Shown in pieces: positions 1 through 60,989 of a DNA stretch of 64,000 nt (within the stretch, counting starts at the first letter, position 1; every line of letters begins with the position of its first letter). Position numbers and translations under genes: made by a program. Source of the DNA: a phage. The notes under the pieces were generated by a model that was not told the DNA's origin, did no database searches, and saw only the letters and a list, made by a program, of their open reading frames with translations. The stretch lies in NCBI GenBank assembly GCA_027263115.1, contig GCA_027263115.1_3656.1, one strand, 5' to 3'.

Positions 1-263
1 ACACCGATGCGGAAAACAATATCTGCTGGGAGTTCGAAACTGAAGATATCCATAAACTTTTCACCTTCCTAGGTATTAAGGTTGAGGCCAAGTTTGAAGA
101 AGGCGAGTGCGACGATTGTGGATTCTACGAGGTAACAGATTTCTATCTCCCAAGTGGTGAGAACCTTTACTATGAAAGCCACTTCGGCAACTCAAATATG
201 CCACAAGGTTGGGATGAGTTTTTTGAAATTGCGGAAGAGGAGCTGACATACCGTGATTATTGA
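1..263 (+). CDS. hypothetical protein, C-terminal fragment (gene begins upstream of window)
   Basis: Open frame from window edge to TGA at 261-263, no internal stop. Confidence 0.45.
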   Translation, partial: TDAENNICWEFETEDIHKLFTFLGIKVEAKFEEGECDDCGFYEVTDFYLPSGENLYYESHFGNSNMPQGWDEFFEIAEEELTYRDY

Positions 264-2938: not shown

Positions 2939-3554
2939 TCTGAATCTGATTTTCTGGAAATCGTTCCGGCTCTCGACCTGAAATTTTTGGGGACGAAATC
3001 GATTTTTCGTTTTCAGAAATGGATTTTTAAAATTTCTATATGGGAATATTTTAGTGGATACTATTTTATAGGAAATTGTTACGGAGGGTAATTAGCGTGC
3101 TAATTAAATTTATTAAATGCGAGGAGTTCTCATTTAGAATTTTGAATGATAATCATTCTCGTTTGCAGAATAACGGGCAGGCCCGGTGATTGTCTCCCGG
3201 CCCCTACTGCCCCGGCTTGTTATTATAGTAACACACAGGACAAAGAAAGCAAGAAGTTTTTGCATAAATTTTTAGACGATAATGATAATCGTTCTCATTT
3301 CATGCAGCGCCCATCCCCGGTGGTTGTCTCCCCCGTCACCGGTGCCTGCCGTCCTTTCGATAGGTATATTTTGCCACCTGGCGGGGCCGCTGTCAACACT
3401 TTTCAAAAAAATTTCTAACCTGATGCGCTGACCGCTGCAACCTGGCGGGGCCAGCCTGGCAGGGCCTAACTGACCAGGTAGGAGAGAATGAAGGCTTGCA
3501 AACCTGGTGGGCCTATGCTATAGGATAGGTAACAATTGAAGAGGAGGTACAAAA

Positions 3555-26351: not shown

Positions 26352-26504
26352 TCAATAAACATGGCTTGAAACACTGGAAGGTCTCCCTAAATTAACGCAC
26401 CATTTTAAATACATGCTCTTTTCCCATAAAGGTGCCTGGCTAAGATCTGCGTAGAACGCAATCTCTTTAAGAACAGTATAGATAGTTTTAGGTGCGGTCT
26501 CCAT
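26352..26504 (-). CDS. small hypothetical protein (50 aa)
   Basis: Internal ATG preceded by AGGAAGGAGA (track ORF 26352..26540 trimmed). Confidence 0.35.
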   Translation of the reverse strand: METAPKTIYTVLKEIAFYADLSQAPLWEKSMYLKWCVNLGRPSSVSSHVY

Positions 26505-26715
26505 CCCTACTCTCCTTCCTGATATTCTTGTAGTAATCAACTAGGCACATTATTACGATGAAGATAACAACAGGCCAAAAAGGTGCAGCAGTGATGATGG
26601 TGATAAAATCATCAAACTTCACCCTTCGTCTGGACACGATGCATACACCTGTCAAGAATACCGCTGTTATAACGGACATTACCAGGTAACCTATTAGCAC
26701 AACATTTATACTCAT
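26488..26715 (-). CDS. holin-like small membrane protein (two TM helices, charged C-terminus)
   Basis: 75 aa; two hydrophobic helices and a KESRDGDRT tail. Confidence 0.4.
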   Translation of the reverse strand: MSINVVLIGYLVMSVITAVFLTGVCIVSRRRVKFDDFITIITAAPFWPVVIFIVIMCLVDYYKNIRKESRDGDRT

Positions 26716-47314: not shown

Positions 47315-47608
47315 TCAAGACTTTTTAGTCTTTCTTGGAGAGCTTTTTGTTGATCTTTTCCTTTTGTGGTAGATTCCAAGTGCAGCGTTTTCTTGGGCGC
47401 ACGTTTTAACAGTTCTCAGACAAGAACTTTCAGCTTTAGGCAGGTTTAACTCCCACCAACCAAGCCAGTAAAGTTCTGATTCAGACAACTGCTCAGATTC
47501 AGCCTTCCGATACAAGGCTTGCATACCTCTGATGATATCGTCCAGAGGTGTATCGAATACAAAAGCTGTCTTATCGAATTTCTCTTTTACAGGTCTCTTA
47601 GCCATCAA
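47315..47608 (-). CDS. hypothetical protein
   Basis: 97 aa, basic C-terminus. Confidence 0.5.
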   Translation of the reverse strand: MMAKRPVKEKFDKTAFVFDTPLDDIIRGMQALYRKAESEQLSESELYWLGWWELNLPKAESSCLRTVKTCAQENAALGIYHKRKRSTKSSPRKTKKS

Positions 47609-48062
47609 GGTAACCCTCTATCCACGAAAAGTCAGTCTTCCATTCTGGAACTTTACTAAGCTCACGCCACTCTGCAAAGCAGTCTCGGTAATACGCCTCT
47701 GCCATACCTTTGGTGATCTTATTCACCTTAGCCAACTGATTAACTGCCTGAGCATACTTTCCACGGATATTTGCTAACCCAGGATGCACCGATGTGTGAC
47801 AATCTGGGCACAACGCTATCAGTCCGACAAGCCGGATCACTCCCTCTTCGAAAGTGTAAAGTTCATGACACTCCACTGGGTGTTTGCTGCCTTTACCGCC
47901 GCACACCTCACAGGTGTAGTTGGCTTCTCTATAGCACTTCTTGCGGATCTTATCCCACTCACTCTTCTTTACAGCGTTTCGGAGGTTATTATACCAAGCT
48001 GTTTCTGGGATCAGTTGCACAATAAGCCTGCGTTCAGACTTCATTAAACGTCCGTCTTCCAC
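47598..48062 (-). CDS. zinc-finger protein (possible HNH-like nuclease)
   Basis: 154 aa; CEVCGG...CHELY...CPDCH. Confidence 0.4.
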   Translation of the reverse strand: MEDGRLMKSERRLIVQLIPETAWYNNLRNAVKKSEWDKIRKKCYREANYTCEVCGGKGSKHPVECHELYTFEEGVIRLVGLIALCPDCHTSVHPGLANIRGKYAQAVNQLAKVNKITKGMAEAYYRDCFAEWRELSKVPEWKTDFSWIEGYLDG

Positions 48063-48071
48063 GTATTCTCC

Positions 48072-48278
48072 TCATTCAAAGAAATGGGTGCGAGGGCAGG
48101 AACCTGCCTCTCCTTGTTTCACAAGTTCGTAGAGCTCACCTTGGCTTGTCTCATAAAGGCAAATACGTTTACCATTGTCCCGATATACATCGACAAGATA
48201 CGCTGTTTCACCTGCAGACACGACACCACAGGCCAGACATGCCGCCATGAACAAAATTGCCAACAGAAAATCTTTCAT
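48072..48278 (-). CDS. small secreted or lipoprotein-like protein
   Basis: 68 aa; signal-like MKDFLLAILFMAACLACG; immediately downstream of endolysin. Confidence 0.5.
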   Translation of the reverse strand: MKDFLLAILFMAACLACGVVSAGETAYLVDVYRDNGKRICLYETSQGELYELVKQGEAGSCPRTHFFE

Positions 48279-48341
48279 GGTTAAACCCTCTCAAACATTT
48301 TATGAGGTGACAATACCACGTCCGTGTGGTTATGTCAATGA

Positions 48342-48812
48342 TCAATCCAGGACAACACCGCCTGCCTTTTTAAACACCTCGATCAACTTCTCGATCTTCT
48401 GTTCATGCTGACCATATCCAGCGCCGGGTAACGAAGCCCAGCGGGAACGGCATTTGCGGATAGCTTCGTGGATACGCCCTTCGTCAATGTCGGCGAGAGC
48501 CTTGCACTCACGGATCAGTTGCAACGCAATCTTGTCCTGACTGGCAGGGCCAAAATCTGGTAATCCTAACTGTTTCATGTAGTGTTTAGCAAACTTCTCC
48601 AAAACCTGGTAACGCCCAGCAGCGGAGGAGGTAAGTTTAGCATTTAGCTTAACGTAAACACCTGGATGCTTGCTGTAATCGCTGAACAGCTTGCCGCCGA
48701 CTATGACATCGTACCCCCGATCCTTGGTAGGTTGTCTACCATTATCTGTTCCTTCCGAATATGCGATCATATCCAAGAAAGCTTTTCGTTGAACATTTTT
48801 ATCAAGTTTCAT
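48342..48812 (-). CDS. endolysin, lambda R-like lytic transglycosylase
   Basis: 156 aa; near-colinear with lambda R (QRKAFLDM...SEGTDNGRQ...GYDVIVGG...WASLPGAGYGQ). Confidence 0.9.
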   Translation of the reverse strand: MKLDKNVQRKAFLDMIAYSEGTDNGRQPTKDRGYDVIVGGKLFSDYSKHPGVYVKLNAKLTSSAAGRYQVLEKFAKHYMKQLGLPDFGPASQDKIALQLIRECKALADIDEGRIHEAIRKCRSRWASLPGAGYGQHEQKIEKLIEVFKKAGGVVLD

Positions 48813-48936
48813 TTTTCATACTCTCCAGTTTACTCATAACTAACCCGATCAACAACACTGCATAGTGTGGTTATGTAGGTGCCAATTGAAAAACCATCAT
48901 TCAATTGGCTACCGTTACCTACTAAACCATCCTACA

Positions 48937-50220
48937 TCATTCCAGAACCTCCCAAGTGTCTGGGTTAACATTTCGGACGCAGATACCGACAGGGAATTGG
49001 TAGTTGTTGTCTTCTGTCCTTGCTTGATATTTGAAGGTGACAAACTTGCCGATCATTTCCTGCATCCTGTCATAGCTACGCTCCTCGTGCGTGCCTTTCA
49101 TCTTCATTTTAACAACAACACCTTCCTTGTCAACACAGATAAGAACACCTTCATCATTCTTATCTTTCTCAACGTCAATAACTTTCACCTCTGCGTCGTT
49201 GAACTTTTTCCATTTCAATGCTTCAGATGTTCGCTGACCATACTCATATTTACCACAGAAGTTACGCATAATGGTACCTTCATATCCCTCAGACATAAAT
49301 ATACCAACAGACTCTTCGCACCGATCAACTGTGTATGCAATCTCTGCATCAACAACCTTAATATGATCAAGCATCAAAGAAGCAATAGCACCATTTGCCT
49401 CCATAAGATCCTTACAGCGTCCAGACTCTGTTTCAGGATCCCACCACACCTTATCGCTAGGAATATCGAAAATATGATACTCTAAGTCGTAGCTGCAGTA
49501 CCCTCCGTAACGCAAATCATCACGAACAGGCTCAACATCAACAGGAATGTCCATCTTGTTGAAGTTTTTGTATGTTGCTAAACCTGCTTTAATCGCAGCC
49601 TGACGGCGTTTTTTATCTGCCTTGTAGTCTTTATCGATCTCGGCCTGAATTTCTTCCTGTGTGCGCCACCGTTTAGCAAGAGACACTATTTTCTGCAGAG
49701 GCAGACCATGAATATAGAGCTCTCCGTCGAGCTGTTTAATCCCGGTGGTTAGGTGGAAAGAGCGAAGTTGCTCCAGAAGCTTCCCTTGAATAGGGTAGGA
49801 CTTATTACCACGGGAAATAAATTTAGGCTCACCATTCTGGAAAACAACAAGTAGACGAAGGCCATCTAACTTACGCAAGATCCAGCAAGGTAATTTAAGT
49901 GCCTTGCCACGCTTCAGGTAGTCATGCACCAACATGGGTAAAAGATCAACACCTTGCTCACAATCTTCCATACTCTCCACGTACCCGAGTCGGACCTGTT
50001 TTTCCCACTTACTGATCGCTTCCAGCTCGGCCTGTTGCTCAGCTGTAGTTTCATTAGCGCGACCCACGTTCTTAGGTGTGCAGATCGTCTCTTTGTATTG
50101 CAGTTTACCATCAAGCTTGCCAAACTCTACGATAACCTTATCACCATCCGTGAATACTTTCCACTGTTGGTGGCTGCCATCTTTGTTCAGTGCGTACAGT
50201 GTTGTTTTGATCTGATGCAT
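48937..50220 (-). CDS. ATP-dependent DNA ligase
   Basis: 427 aa; motif I KLDGLR, motif IV EGYEGTIMR, motif V LKWKK. Confidence 0.7.
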   Translation of the reverse strand: MHQIKTTLYALNKDGSHQQWKVFTDGDKVIVEFGKLDGKLQYKETICTPKNVGRANETTAEQQAELEAISKWEKQVRLGYVESMEDCEQGVDLLPMLVHDYLKRGKALKLPCWILRKLDGLRLLVVFQNGEPKFISRGNKSYPIQGKLLEQLRSFHLTTGIKQLDGELYIHGLPLQKIVSLAKRWRTQEEIQAEIDKDYKADKKRRQAAIKAGLATYKNFNKMDIPVDVEPVRDDLRYGGYCSYDLEYHIFDIPSDKVWWDPETESGRCKDLMEANGAIASLMLDHIKVVDAEIAYTVDRCEESVGIFMSEGYEGTIMRNFCGKYEYGQRTSEALKWKKFNDAEVKVIDVEKDKNDEGVLICVDKEGVVVKMKMKGTHEERSYDRMQEMIGKFVTFKYQARTEDNNYQFPVGICVRNVNPDTWEVLE

Positions 50221-58759: not shown

Positions 58760-59158
58760 ATGATTTCAGGTTTAACATGGCTGAGTAGGTATAGAGGGAT
58801 CATAAAAGGTTTAGTTTTTGCAGCGGCTATAGGTGCAGCTTATCTTGGGGCCGTGTATTGGTTTAACTCTAAGCTTAATGATGCCTACCAAGAGGGTGTG
58901 TCAGCAACAGAGTTAAAGTGGGAACGGATCCTTGATCAGCAACAAAAGCAGGCCGACAAAATTAAAATGGGCCACGCAGAGGAGGTTAAAAACCTTGAAA
59001 AATCTCTTTCTGATTTGCAGGATAAATTAAATATAGCTGAGAGGGCAGGTAGAGAAAAGCAGATTATTTACCTCCAATCACCTGAAGGTAAGAAGTCAAC
59101 ACTTCCTGATCAGCTTATAGATATTTATAATGAGAGTATCAATCAGGAGGATCGATGA
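58760..59158 (+). CDS. i-spanin (Rz-like: N-terminal TM helix plus coiled coil)
   Basis: 132 aa; TM segment LVFAAAIGAAYLGAVYWF then helical region; ATGA coupling with next gene. Confidence 0.6.
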   Translation: MISGLTWLSRYRGIIKGLVFAAAIGAAYLGAVYWFNSKLNDAYQEGVSATELKWERILDQQQKQADKIKMGHAEEVKNLEKSLSDLQDKLNIAERAGREKQIIYLQSPEGKKSTLPDQLIDIYNESINQEDR

Positions 59159-59442
59159 GAGTTGCTACACTGTTTATTGCGTGCTTGTTATTATGCGGGT
59201 GTGCAACCAGTGTTGAGAAAGAATACAAGATTGACCCTCCAGATGTAGGAAGGTTGATTGTTAAACCCCCAGAAGGTGCCATGAAACCACCTGCTAAAGC
59301 TATGCCTTTGAAGAAAGGTGCGCCAGATGCAGTGAACTCTGGCATTATGAGGGATAATAATCTGTCTTGTAGCAATGATAGAGCTAAATTGATCATTTTG
59401 CAAGACTATATTAGAACACTGTTTCCAAAGGAGAGAGGTTAA
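59155..59442 (+). CDS. o-spanin (Rz1-like proline-rich lipoprotein)
   Basis: 95 aa; signal with LLLCGC lipobox-like site; Pro-rich DPPDVGRLIVKPPEGAMKPPAKAMP; SD CAGGAGGA. Confidence 0.6.
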   Translation: MRVATLFIACLLLCGCATSVEKEYKIDPPDVGRLIVKPPEGAMKPPAKAMPLKKGAPDAVNSGIMRDNNLSCSNDRAKLIILQDYIRTLFPKERG

Positions 59443-60989
59443 TGTCTAAGATTTACGGACCGTGTTCTGAAAAGCAGAAGATGATCCTAGAAAACGATGC
59501 AGATATTTTGGTAATCGGCGGTGCCGCAGGGTCTGGCAAGTCGTTCCTCTTGCAGTTGATGCCACTTAAAATTATTGATGACCCCCACAGCTCTGTGGTT
59601 ATGTTCCGAAGAACAACCCCACAGTTGGAAGGTGAGGGTGGACTATGGCCTAAAGCAGTAGCTATTTATAGTGATCTGCCTGAAAACATTAAGCCAAAGT
59701 TCAGAGAGAAGGATCATAAGTTCATTTTTCCACGGTTTGATCCGAACACTGGCAAGTGGGATAGGAGCAAAAAGGGAGCTGTTGTAAAATACTGCCACAT
59801 GGAGTATGTACAAGATAAGCTTAACCATCAAGGGCTTGAGTACACCATGGTTTGCTTCGATGAGGGAACGCAGTTCGAATGGGAGCAGATAGACTATCTG
59901 ATGTCTCGTCTGCGATCTCAGTCAAAGTATCCATCAAGAATGGTTATCAGCTGTAACCCCGATTCAGAACACATGCTTGCCAAACTGGTTAGATGGTGGT
60001 TGGACGATGAAGGGTATCCAGATCCGGAGAAATGCGGTAAGAAAAGATATTTTATCCGACGCGACGGTGAATTTATTTGGGGAGACTCTAAGGAAGAGTT
60101 GATAGAGAAATACACCACGGTTAACGGACTGGGTGTAGAGATCAAGCCAAGACCGTTGTCATTCTCGTTCATAGGCGCAACAATATTCGATAATCCTGTC
60201 TGTTTGAGAGACAACCCAGAATACCTTGCTTTCCTCGAAGGTCTACCAGAGCTGGAAAAAGCTCAGCTTCTCCATGGTAACTGGTTTGCAAAGCCTGAGG
60301 GTGCAAACTATTTTCAAAGATCTTTCCTTCGTGATGCCGATAGAGTACCCCTTGGATCAGTATCTTGCAGGGCATGGGATAAGGCAGGAACCGAGAGAAC
60401 TTCCGGCAATAAATTTCCTGACTTTACTGCCAGTATTAAGGTAAGTAAAGATAGCGACGGCTTTTATTACCTGTCAGGGGATTATTGTCCTGAAAACGTG
60501 GATGACGGGAGGTATTCCACAGGTCTGGAAGGCAAGTTCTGTAAAAAGGCTGGTGAACGAGATGTGATCATCAGGAAACAGGCGCAGTTTGATGGTGATG
60601 ATTGTATAATCGTATTCTCTGTGGACCCCGGTCAGGCAGGTAAGAGTGAGTTCTTAACCTCATCCAGATCCTTGCTCGCAGAAGGGTTCAGGGTTGAAGA
60701 AGATCCAATGCCTTCCAACAAGTCTAAACTGACAAGGTTCTCACCTTTTGCCAATCTTGCCCAACAAGGGATGGTGAGGATTGTAAAATCCAGTTTCCAT
60801 CCTGATACTCTGGAAGCATTTCTGACCGAACTTGAAAAATTCAACGGGGAAAGATCAACATTTAACAGAAAAGACGACTGGGCTGACTGTGTAGCTTCTG
60901 CAATTAATTTCCTGGAGAAAGAGGAGGTAGCACTTCCTTGTGTGATTCCATCAATCTCATCACCCTCTATGTTCAAGCGTTTTATCTAA
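59442..60989 (+). CDS. terminase large subunit
   Basis: 515 aa; N-terminal Walker A VIGGAAGSGKSF; position before portal gene; ATGA coupling with o-spanin. Confidence 0.8.
   Translation: MSKIYGPCSEKQKMILENDADILVIGGAAGSGKSFLLQLMPLKIIDDPHSSVVMFRRTTPQLEGEGGLWPKAVAIYSDLPENIKPKFREKDHKFIFPRFDPNTGKWDRSKKGAVVKYCHMEYVQDKLNHQGLEYTMVCFDEGTQFEWEQIDYLMSRLRSQSKYPSRMVISCNPDSEHMLAKLVRWWLDDEGYPDPEKCGKKRYFIRRDGEFIWGDSKEELIEKYTTVNGLGVEIKPRPLSFSFIGATIFDNPVCLRDNPEYLAFLEGLPELEKAQLLHGNWFAKPEGANYFQRSFLRDADRVPLGSVSCRAWDKAGTERTSGNKFPDFTASIKVSKDSDGFYYLSGDYCPENVDDGRYSTGLEGKFCKKAGERDVIIRKQAQFDGDDCIIVFSVDPGQAGKSEFLTSSRSLLAEGFRVEEDPMPSNKSKLTRFSPFANLAQQGMVRIVKSSFHPDTLEAFLTELEKFNGERSTFNRKDDWADCVASAINFLEKEEVALPCVIPSISSPSMFKRFI

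Follow-up and report, generated by a model that had tools for sequence, protein, structure and literature searches.

The Locus and Its Features

Two adjacent minus-strand genes are the subject of this study: an endolysin gene and, downstream of it, a gene for a 68-amino-acid (aa) protein of the type of gp90 of phage rV5. They occupy positions 48,072 to 48,812 of a 64,000-nucleotide (nt) stretch of phage DNA (NCBI GenBank assembly GCA_027263115.1, contig GCA_027263115.1_3656.1), the whole of which we call the window. An original prediction, made from the letters of the window, had singled out the pair as an endolysin gene with a signal-peptide- or lipoprotein-like neighbour and with its holin and spanins far away. 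Its coordinates for all named open reading frames (ORFs) are exact, and they are collected with those of the other features in Table 1.

The window is the genome of a Vequintavirus (rV5-like) coliphage. For the 2-kb stretch around the pair the top match is phage nomine (99.0% identity), and deposited Vequintavirus genomes, more than 80 in number, share 97-99% identity with the region. The annotations of phages nomine and WalterGehring give the same gene order as the window: on the minus strand DNA ligase, lysin, ‘putative membrane protein’ (the name that GenBank records give the small ORF), HNH endonuclease, two small ORFs, exonuclease and genes of nucleotide metabolism, and on the plus strand, ~10 kb further, tRNAs and the i-spanin. 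The same two genes stand in the same order in rV5 (gp89 and gp90) and, as orthologues, in ~120 Vequintavirus genomes. The small protein of the window is ~98% identical to rV5 gp90, and the sizes of the two products agree with the rV5 table, where gp90 is listed, unannotated, with 68 aa, 7603 Da and an isoelectric point (pI) of 4.8 (Table S3 of PMC3606486).

The scattered layout of the lysis genes in rV5-like phages has been in print since 2013. The rV5 report names gp89 as the lysin, finds no holin homologue and proposes gp129, with two transmembrane domains (TMDs), as a holin whose gene, as in T4, is remote from that of the lysin (Kropinski et al. 2013, PMC3606486). In CB7, rV5 and PVP-SE1 the spanin pair lies beside the large terminase gene and outside a classic lysis cassette (Buttimer et al. 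2020, PMC7344957), and rV5 is included in a spanin census (PMC6139136). The layout itself thus adds nothing new, and genomes already deposited match the sequence at 99% identity; what follows concerns the small gene and its relation to the endolysin.

Table 1. Features of the endolysin locus and of the remote lysis genes in the window
Feature	Position	Strand	Evidence or remarks
Gene for 68-aa pre-protein, rV5 gp90 orthologue	48072..48278	-	PHROG 4641 (function unknown), E 1e-27
Predicted Sec signal peptide, residues 1-22 (MKDFLLAILFMAACLACGVVSA)	48213..48278	-	Predicted signal peptidase I (SPase I) cleavage after V-S-A22, before G
Mature 46-aa domain	48075..48212	-	~5.3 kDa, pI ~4.9; predicted four-stranded beta-sheet
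Shine-Dalgarno GAGAGGG of small gene	48286..48292	-	GGAGG-like block conserved in alignment
Sigma-70-type promoter, extended -10	48310..48338	-	TTGACA, 17 nt, (TGg)TATTGT; in the 63-nt gap from endolysin stop to small-gene ATG
Endolysin, lambda R-type lytic transglycosylase, 156 aa, rV5 gp89 orthologue	48342..48812	-	PHROG 90 ‘endolysin’, E 2e-56; lambda lysozyme homology
Perfect 10-bp hairpin	48881..48909	-	In ligase-endolysin spacer; no U-tract after it
Sigma-70-like promoter	49106..49133	-	TTGACA, 16 nt, TAAAAT, TG before the -10; in 3′ end of ligase gene, 294 nt upstream of endolysin ATG
HNH endonuclease gene	47598..48062	-	Next downstream of small ORF, same orientation; PHROG 5200, E 2e-72
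i-spanin, 132 aa, one N-terminal TMD	58760..59158	+	PHROG 4297 (Rz-like spanin), E 4e-48; annotated i-spanin in phage nomine
o-spanin, 95 aa, lipobox LLCGC	59155..59442	+	PHROG 1267 (Rz-like spanin), E 2e-22
75-aa two-TMD protein, rV5 gp129 orthologue, putative holin	26488..26715	-	PHROG 10061 (function unknown); PMC3606486

The Small Gene and Its Product

The 68-aa ORF is a real gene under purifying selection in its mature part. Compared with that of a relative of 72% identity, the mature part shows 0.089 nonsynonymous (dN) and 1.83 synonymous (dS) substitutions per site (omega ~0.05); dN over the first 22 codons is 0.44 for the same relative. A search with a gp90-type profile gave 195 homologue clusters at 90% identity, with close relatives also returned by a word-seeded search, and an exhaustive hidden Markov model search of 1.84 billion representatives gave 45 clusters at 50% identity, nearly all of 57-91 aa. 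Selection and family conservation together rule out a spurious ORF.

Relatives were aligned in sets of 14 and 92, and all residue counts given here come from the 92. Their first 22 residues are hypervariable, with a mean majority frequency of 0.41 (0.68 for the mature part), and conservation starts at residue 23. Just before this point the residue at -1 is Ala in 87 of the 92 relatives and that at -3 is Ala, Val or Ser in 85; the mean length of the signal peptide is 23. AlphaFold2 (AF2) models the signal region as a helix over residues 2-16. The export signal proposed for the ORF downstream of the endolysin is thus borne out across the family as an n-h-c signal peptide whose -3 and -1 positions hold small residues, from which we infer a precursor, exported by Sec and cleaved by SPase I, of a small periplasmic protein.

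The mature part measures 43-48 aa and contains exactly two cysteines in all 92 relatives. Seven residues are invariant in the family alignment (T25, L28, Y32, C40, Y42, G47 and C61), and AF2 models the mature domain at a mean predicted local distance difference test score (pLDDT) of 89.9 with strands at 2-12, 15-22, 27-33 and 42-45. The window protein has four cysteines (C14, C17, C40 and C61), one more than had been counted originally; the latter two are presumed to form a disulfide. The conserved pattern of signal peptide and cleavage site leads us to expect, after cleavage and oxidation, a soluble 46-aa periplasmic peptide with one disulfide.

Profile searching of Protein Data Bank (PDB) sequences with the 68-aa protein gave no match at E<1, and the BFVD search returned uncharacterised small phage proteins only.

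The Endolysin

As originally proposed, the endolysin is a lambda R-like lysozyme. Its phmmer alignment with lambda lysozyme R (PDB 1AM7) has an E-value of 1.2e-56 and is full length (residues 4-154 against 3-153), the PHROG 90 assignment agrees, and the catalytic glutamate is kept, AYSEGTD aligning with AWSEGTD of lambda R; Glu20 is the catalytic residue (PMC9728275). The two proteins (1AM7 and 3D3D for lambda R) also share their length. A Pfam-A search of the window endolysin gave no match; the rV5 paper assigns PF00959 to the lysin (PMC3606486). LysECP26, which is 98% identical to the rV5-type lysin and 62% to lambda R, is active alone when purified, and its murein-degrading activity is seen in the lysis of ethylenediaminetetraacetic acid (EDTA)-treated Escherichia coli (PMC9728275).

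The window endolysin has no N-terminal hydrophobic segment, signal or signal-arrest-release (SAR) segment and is predicted to be cytoplasmic. It also lacks the company that lambda R keeps: lambda R sits in an S-R-Rz/Rz1 cassette, whereas the window endolysin lies in the replication module, between DNA ligase and the gene of a small secreted protein. With ligase upstream and the HNH endonuclease downstream of the pair, neither side holds a holin or spanin, as the original prediction had it, and the 68-aa ORF is the only ORF next to the endolysin with a hydrophobic segment.

Promoters

A near-consensus sigma-70 promoter lies between the two genes. Its -35 hexamer is invariant, and five related lineages have the promoter at an unchanged position, as does phage FV3 behind an inserted HNH gene. 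Promoters of the form TTGAC[AT]-16..18-TAnnnT are found 56-62 nt upstream of the small-gene start in PVP-SE1, KB57, GAP31, Mydo, A7_1, SSBI34 and the metagenomic locus L018, and one of the TTGAC[AT] type is also present upstream of the gp90 homologue of phAPEC8. An intrinsic terminator immediately precedes the promoter in A7_1 and SSBI34. In FV3 and in L024, an IMG/VR Vequintavirus contig, the identical promoter sequence is still attached to the small gene despite, respectively, the HNH insertion and an exchange of the endolysin. Judged from these motifs, a separate transcription unit begins with the small gene and is read by the host polymerase, and the endolysin is served by the promoter at 49133-49106.

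Over the window 37 promoters of the form TTGAC[AT]-16..18-TAnnnT were counted between 1162 and 57468, where 3.3 are expected, and all are in gene orientation; none lies in the 58-64 kb part that holds the spanins, TerL and the portal. For rV5, 33 sigma-70 promoters have been reported (PMC3606486). The rV5 ‘late’ motif TGGTAAAATA is enriched in the window and was found upstream of neither member of the pair.

Upstream of the gp90 homologue (gp142 locus) of phAPEC8, at 3429-3500 of the compared segment (L039), TTGACT-17-TATTAT is followed by a hairpin (GCCTACCT...AGGTAGGC, TTTTT) and then by the Shine-Dalgarno sequence. This hairpin could be an attenuator, or a terminator overlapping with the promoter.

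Conservation of the Gene Pair

Thirty related loci were compared by annotation and tblastn. The endolysin and the small gene are linked in 13 loci of Vequintavirus-type lineages, unlinked in the 17 sampled loci of other lineages and also in the Yersinia islands, and interrupted in FV3. Four arrangements, A to D, can be distinguished in addition to that of phAPEC8.

Group A. In the window, nomine, WalterGehring, L021/L022 and L024 the order is ligase, R-type endolysin, small gene, HNH endonuclease, exonuclease.

Group B. In L018-L020 and L025-L028, known from metagenomes only, exonuclease and two ORFs precede the R-type endolysin and small gene, and the downstream genes differ.

Group C. In Seunavirus and Mydovirus (PVP-SE1, GAP31, KB57, Mydo and IMG/VR relatives) the small gene stands between an SPFH/Band-7 lipoprotein gene and NADAR, HNH and exonuclease genes.

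Group D. In A7_1, SSBI34, POP18 and L034 small ORFs of unknown function lie upstream of the small gene.

In phAPEC8 (Stephanstirmvirinae) the upstream gene encodes a 292-aa ‘recombination-associated exonuclease’. No R-type endolysin was found within 3.5 kb of the small gene in groups C and D, nor beside it in phAPEC8; in Certrevirus-like phages, too, the orthologue has no endolysin as its neighbour. Endolysins of other types are reported in the literature for PVP-SE1 and Certrevirus. An HNH gene follows the small gene in the window, L021/L022, L024, FV3 and the Seunavirus/Mydovirus and Certrevirus-like loci; the rearranged L018 group and phAPEC8 gave no HNH match at that place.

Where the pair is kept, its members do not vary together. 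L024 encodes a small protein 99% identical to that of the window beside an endolysin only 52% identical to the window enzyme, and in group B small proteins of 62-67% identity stand beside endolysins of either 61-65% or 82-84%. In FV3 the lysozyme gene and the small gene are separated by an inserted RTP-like HNH homing endonuclease (L038, 1749-2432), and the spacer between the two appears to be an insertion hotspot.

The family extends beyond phages. A 65-aa homologue, with a different signal peptide and a mature part judged by eye to be about three-quarters identical to the Seunavirus type, is found on chromosomes of Yersinia enterocolitica and Y. frederiksenii (L010-L017); a scan of genome contigs with a narrower alignment gave Y. 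frederiksenii only. The homologue is in the conserved arm of an integrative island whose integrase is inserted by rsmI/lpoA, and it is the last of three consecutive signal-peptide ORFs of 80, 137 and 65 aa (L010:5198-6198). The variable slot of the island carries either a restriction-modification system, made up of a methylase with a REase-like (restriction endonuclease-like)/HEPN protein, or the candidate defence system PDC-S06 (PADLOC E = 0). No lysis gene is among the called genes that flank the Yersinia homologue.

The gp90-type protein is thus an unlikely partner of the endolysin and would be functionally independent of it. We take it not to act via the R-type endolysin because it is conserved across two subfamilies whose endolysins differ, according to the literature, and are not adjacent, and also because the two genes recombine independently, a homologue resides in a bacterial defence island and the endolysin is active without gp90. 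The suggestion of a periplasmic endolysin regulator is weakened accordingly: adjacency and the export signal do stand; linkage across the family and co-variation of alleles were not seen.

Three further observations concern the genes around the pair. At 1955-2936 of L024 a 164-aa multi-TMD ORF (PHROG 4899, function unknown) overlaps the start of the divergent R-like endolysin, and the two could be a holin-endolysin cassette swapped in for the endolysin of the window type. L020 has a weak HNH_3-family ORF upstream of its endolysin. The SPFH/Band-7 lipoprotein of PVP-SE1 (L003:2532-3422) and its Mydovirus orthologues, 296 aa long with lipobox LTGC and a Pfam match at E 6e-21, is another envelope-targeted protein, encoded upstream of the gp90 homologue in the slot that the endolysin holds in rV5-like phages.

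Interpretation

We read the pair as an endolysin gene beside an independent small gene that has its own promoter and encodes an exported, early, periplasmic accessory protein, the adjacency being specific to a lineage; we put the probability of this reading at about 0.6. The endolysin would accumulate in the cytoplasm and await a holin encoded elsewhere, for which gp129 is the published putative candidate, and the spanins would complete lysis. The small gene would be transcribed from its extended -10 promoter by unmodified host RNA polymerase, and a promoter of this host type makes early expression probable. Its 68-aa product would be exported by Sec, cleaved by SPase I after Ala22 and oxidised at Cys40 and Cys61, leaving in the periplasm a soluble, acidic mini-protein of 46 residues folded as a four-stranded beta-sheet. 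Its place next to the endolysin would then reflect lineage-specific shuffling of genes in a recombination-prone slot of the replication module and not a lysis cassette.

We consider an early accessory role directed at the envelope most likely. As to what that role might be, our leading guess, a tentative one drawn from analogy, is superinfection exclusion at a periplasmic step, in which gp90 would act as a soluble periplasmic protein and not in the manner of the lipoproteins Llp and Cor. Hints towards the envelope or towards exclusion come from the Yersinia island, where the homologue follows two other secreted ORFs, and from P0141, in which the domain is fused to a probable peptidoglycan-binding domain. 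Spackle (Sp) and Imm of T4 are early superinfection-exclusion proteins whose genes are embedded among replication genes. Small size, an export signal, a periplasmic or envelope location, a presumably early host-type promoter and a neighbourhood of DNA metabolism are common to these and the gp90 type, and they may be its closest functional analogues. With the same reserve, the family may be an unrecognised class of small periplasmic phage effector that acts early, either excluding a secondary infection or sensing it and delaying lysis; it would comprise a ~45-residue disulfide-stabilised beta-protein spread across Vequintavirinae and Stephanstirmvirinae and captured by a Yersinia island.

Several points weigh against this interpretation. 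The 68-aa protein has no Pfam, NCBIfam or PADLOC match at reporting thresholds and among PHROGs matches only 4641, of unknown function; nor does any of its annotated homologues carry an assigned function. Signal-peptide cleavage was judged by rules, and the n-region of the window protein (MKD) has no net positive charge. Sigma-70-like promoters are so common in this genome that one of them is not distinctive by itself. The endolysin-small-gene pair survives the rearrangement of its flanks in group B, which could reflect a functional linkage, and the defence-island context is guilt by association.

The group B pairs lend some weight to the main rival, a lysis regulator, in which the protein would be an antiholin or lysis-inhibition sensor like RI, or would bind the endolysin or murein after the holin has fired, adjacency being kept for that purpose. 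The RI antiholin of T4 has a hydrophobic export segment at its N-terminus and a domain in the periplasm, and the lysis genes of T4 are scattered. The gp90 type resembles RI in all of these respects and in its small size, and as a small exported protein it would be placed where RI acts; the window type, L021 and L018/L025, three diverged lineages, all keep the two genes adjacent, the last of them in a rearranged setting with the exonuclease upstream and not downstream, and for these phages no holin is identified in the literature (PMC6658697). We nevertheless consider such a regulator unlikely. In four other lineages of this phage supergroup no R-type endolysin lies closer than 3.5 kb to the orthologue, the endolysin allele of L024 has been exchanged beside a nearly unchanged small gene, a homing endonuclease separates the two genes in FV3, the small gene has its own promoter and the Yersinia homologue has no flanking lysis gene. 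Homology to RI is not detectable, and conserved adjacency to lysis genes is lacking in the gp90 family.

The same gap in the holin assignment (PMC6658697), together with the GenBank label and the single hydrophobic helix, might instead suggest a membrane protein whose signal anchor stays uncleaved, perhaps the missing holin itself or an accessory of the holin whose C-terminal domain lies in the periplasm. This is very improbable, the hydrophobic segment being the least conserved part of the protein. The TMDs of known holins are generally under functional constraint. The conserved small residues at -3 and -1 favour cleavage, there is no charged cytoplasmic tail, and it would be risky to place a holin under a promoter that the host polymerase recognises. 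We rejected gp90 as the holin itself, its hypervariable hydrophobic segment being followed by a conserved cleavage site. Least probable of all is the lipoprotein of the original prediction, an outer- or inner-membrane protein that would block receptors as an exclusion factor of the Llp/Cor type. Like Llp of T5 and Cor of phi80 and N15, gp90-type proteins are small exported phage proteins with cysteines, and the hydrophobic segment of the window protein and its closest relatives contains the lipobox-like strings M-A-A-C14 and L-A-C17. These two cysteines lie in the hypervariable signal peptide, however, and are both missing from relatives P0006-P0010, sister lineages of 63-73% identity known from metagenome assemblies only. 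Three-quarters of the family (69 of the 92) have no cysteine in the signal region at all and a lipobox-like string occurs in 9; cleavage at C14 would leave a signal peptide of 13 residues, and the conserved AXA site lies downstream of both cysteines. No homology to Llp or Cor was detected with Pfam, NCBIfam or PADLOC. The receptors of Vequintavirinae are glycans of the enterobacterial common antigen (ECA) and the lipopolysaccharide (LPS) core (PMC8594841), not obviously masked by a protein-binding lipoprotein. The lipoprotein reading is not supported, because the lipobox-like cysteines are not conserved and an SPase I site is near-universal instead.

For annotation the useful outcome is a negative one: by these sequence comparisons, gp90 should be called neither a lipoprotein, nor a ‘membrane protein’, nor an endolysin partner. 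The independent, exported gp90 type that we favour is a deeply conserved small periplasmic candidate, probably early, in a therapeutically popular group of phages, and an exclusion role, if real, would have consequences for how cocktails containing Vequintavirinae are designed.

Other Features

The spanin pair does lie beside the terminase gene, 10 kb from the endolysin, as predicted: the i-spanin has its TMD and the o-spanin its lipobox, both match Rz-like spanins in PHROGs, and the o-spanin gene overlaps that of the i-spanin by 4 nt and abuts TerL (from 59442). TerL is one continuous 515-aa ORF in the window (59442-60989), whereas that of rV5 is intron-split into three segments, with a homing endonuclease in one intron (PMC3606486).

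The candidate holin fared less evenly. The 75-aa protein has the two hydrophobic segments and charged C-terminus expected of a class II holin and is orthologous to gp129; homology to a known holin did not emerge, as it has no Pfam or NCBIfam holin match and is not annotated as a holin among the records listed. The authors of the LL12 report could not identify a holin (PMC6658697). Between its TMDs the protein has a strongly basic loop, SRRRVK, that makes its topology ambiguous: the positive-inside rule would put this loop on the cytoplasmic side, opposite to the N-in/C-in topology of class II holins.

Other non-coding elements were considered. The RNA of the ligase-endolysin spacer folds at -33.1 kcal/mol (z -2.6 versus shuffled controls), and Rfam gave no match on 46.5-50.5 kb. 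An identical minus-strand 12-mer, ACATAACCACAC, occurs at 48324-48335 upstream of the small gene and at 48865-48876 upstream of the endolysin, there just 3′ of the 10-bp hairpin. It was considered as a common regulatory element and set aside: at the small gene it falls within the -35 region and the spacer of the promoter, but upstream of the endolysin it has no good -10 partner.

Domain fusions also occur in the gp90 family. P0141, a 512-aa metagenomic protein and a distant relative, has a signal peptide, MORN repeats, a probable PG_binding_1 domain (22.5 bits, just under the Pfam cut-off of 23 bits) and, at its C-terminus, the gp90-type domain twice in tandem, and two stretches of the 150-aa P0158 match the gp90-type domain.

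Nineteen records named ‘Campylobacter phage’ (MG0656xx) match the region, the four among the matches listed with identities of 96.8-98.5%; mislabelling or contamination is the probable origin of these records.

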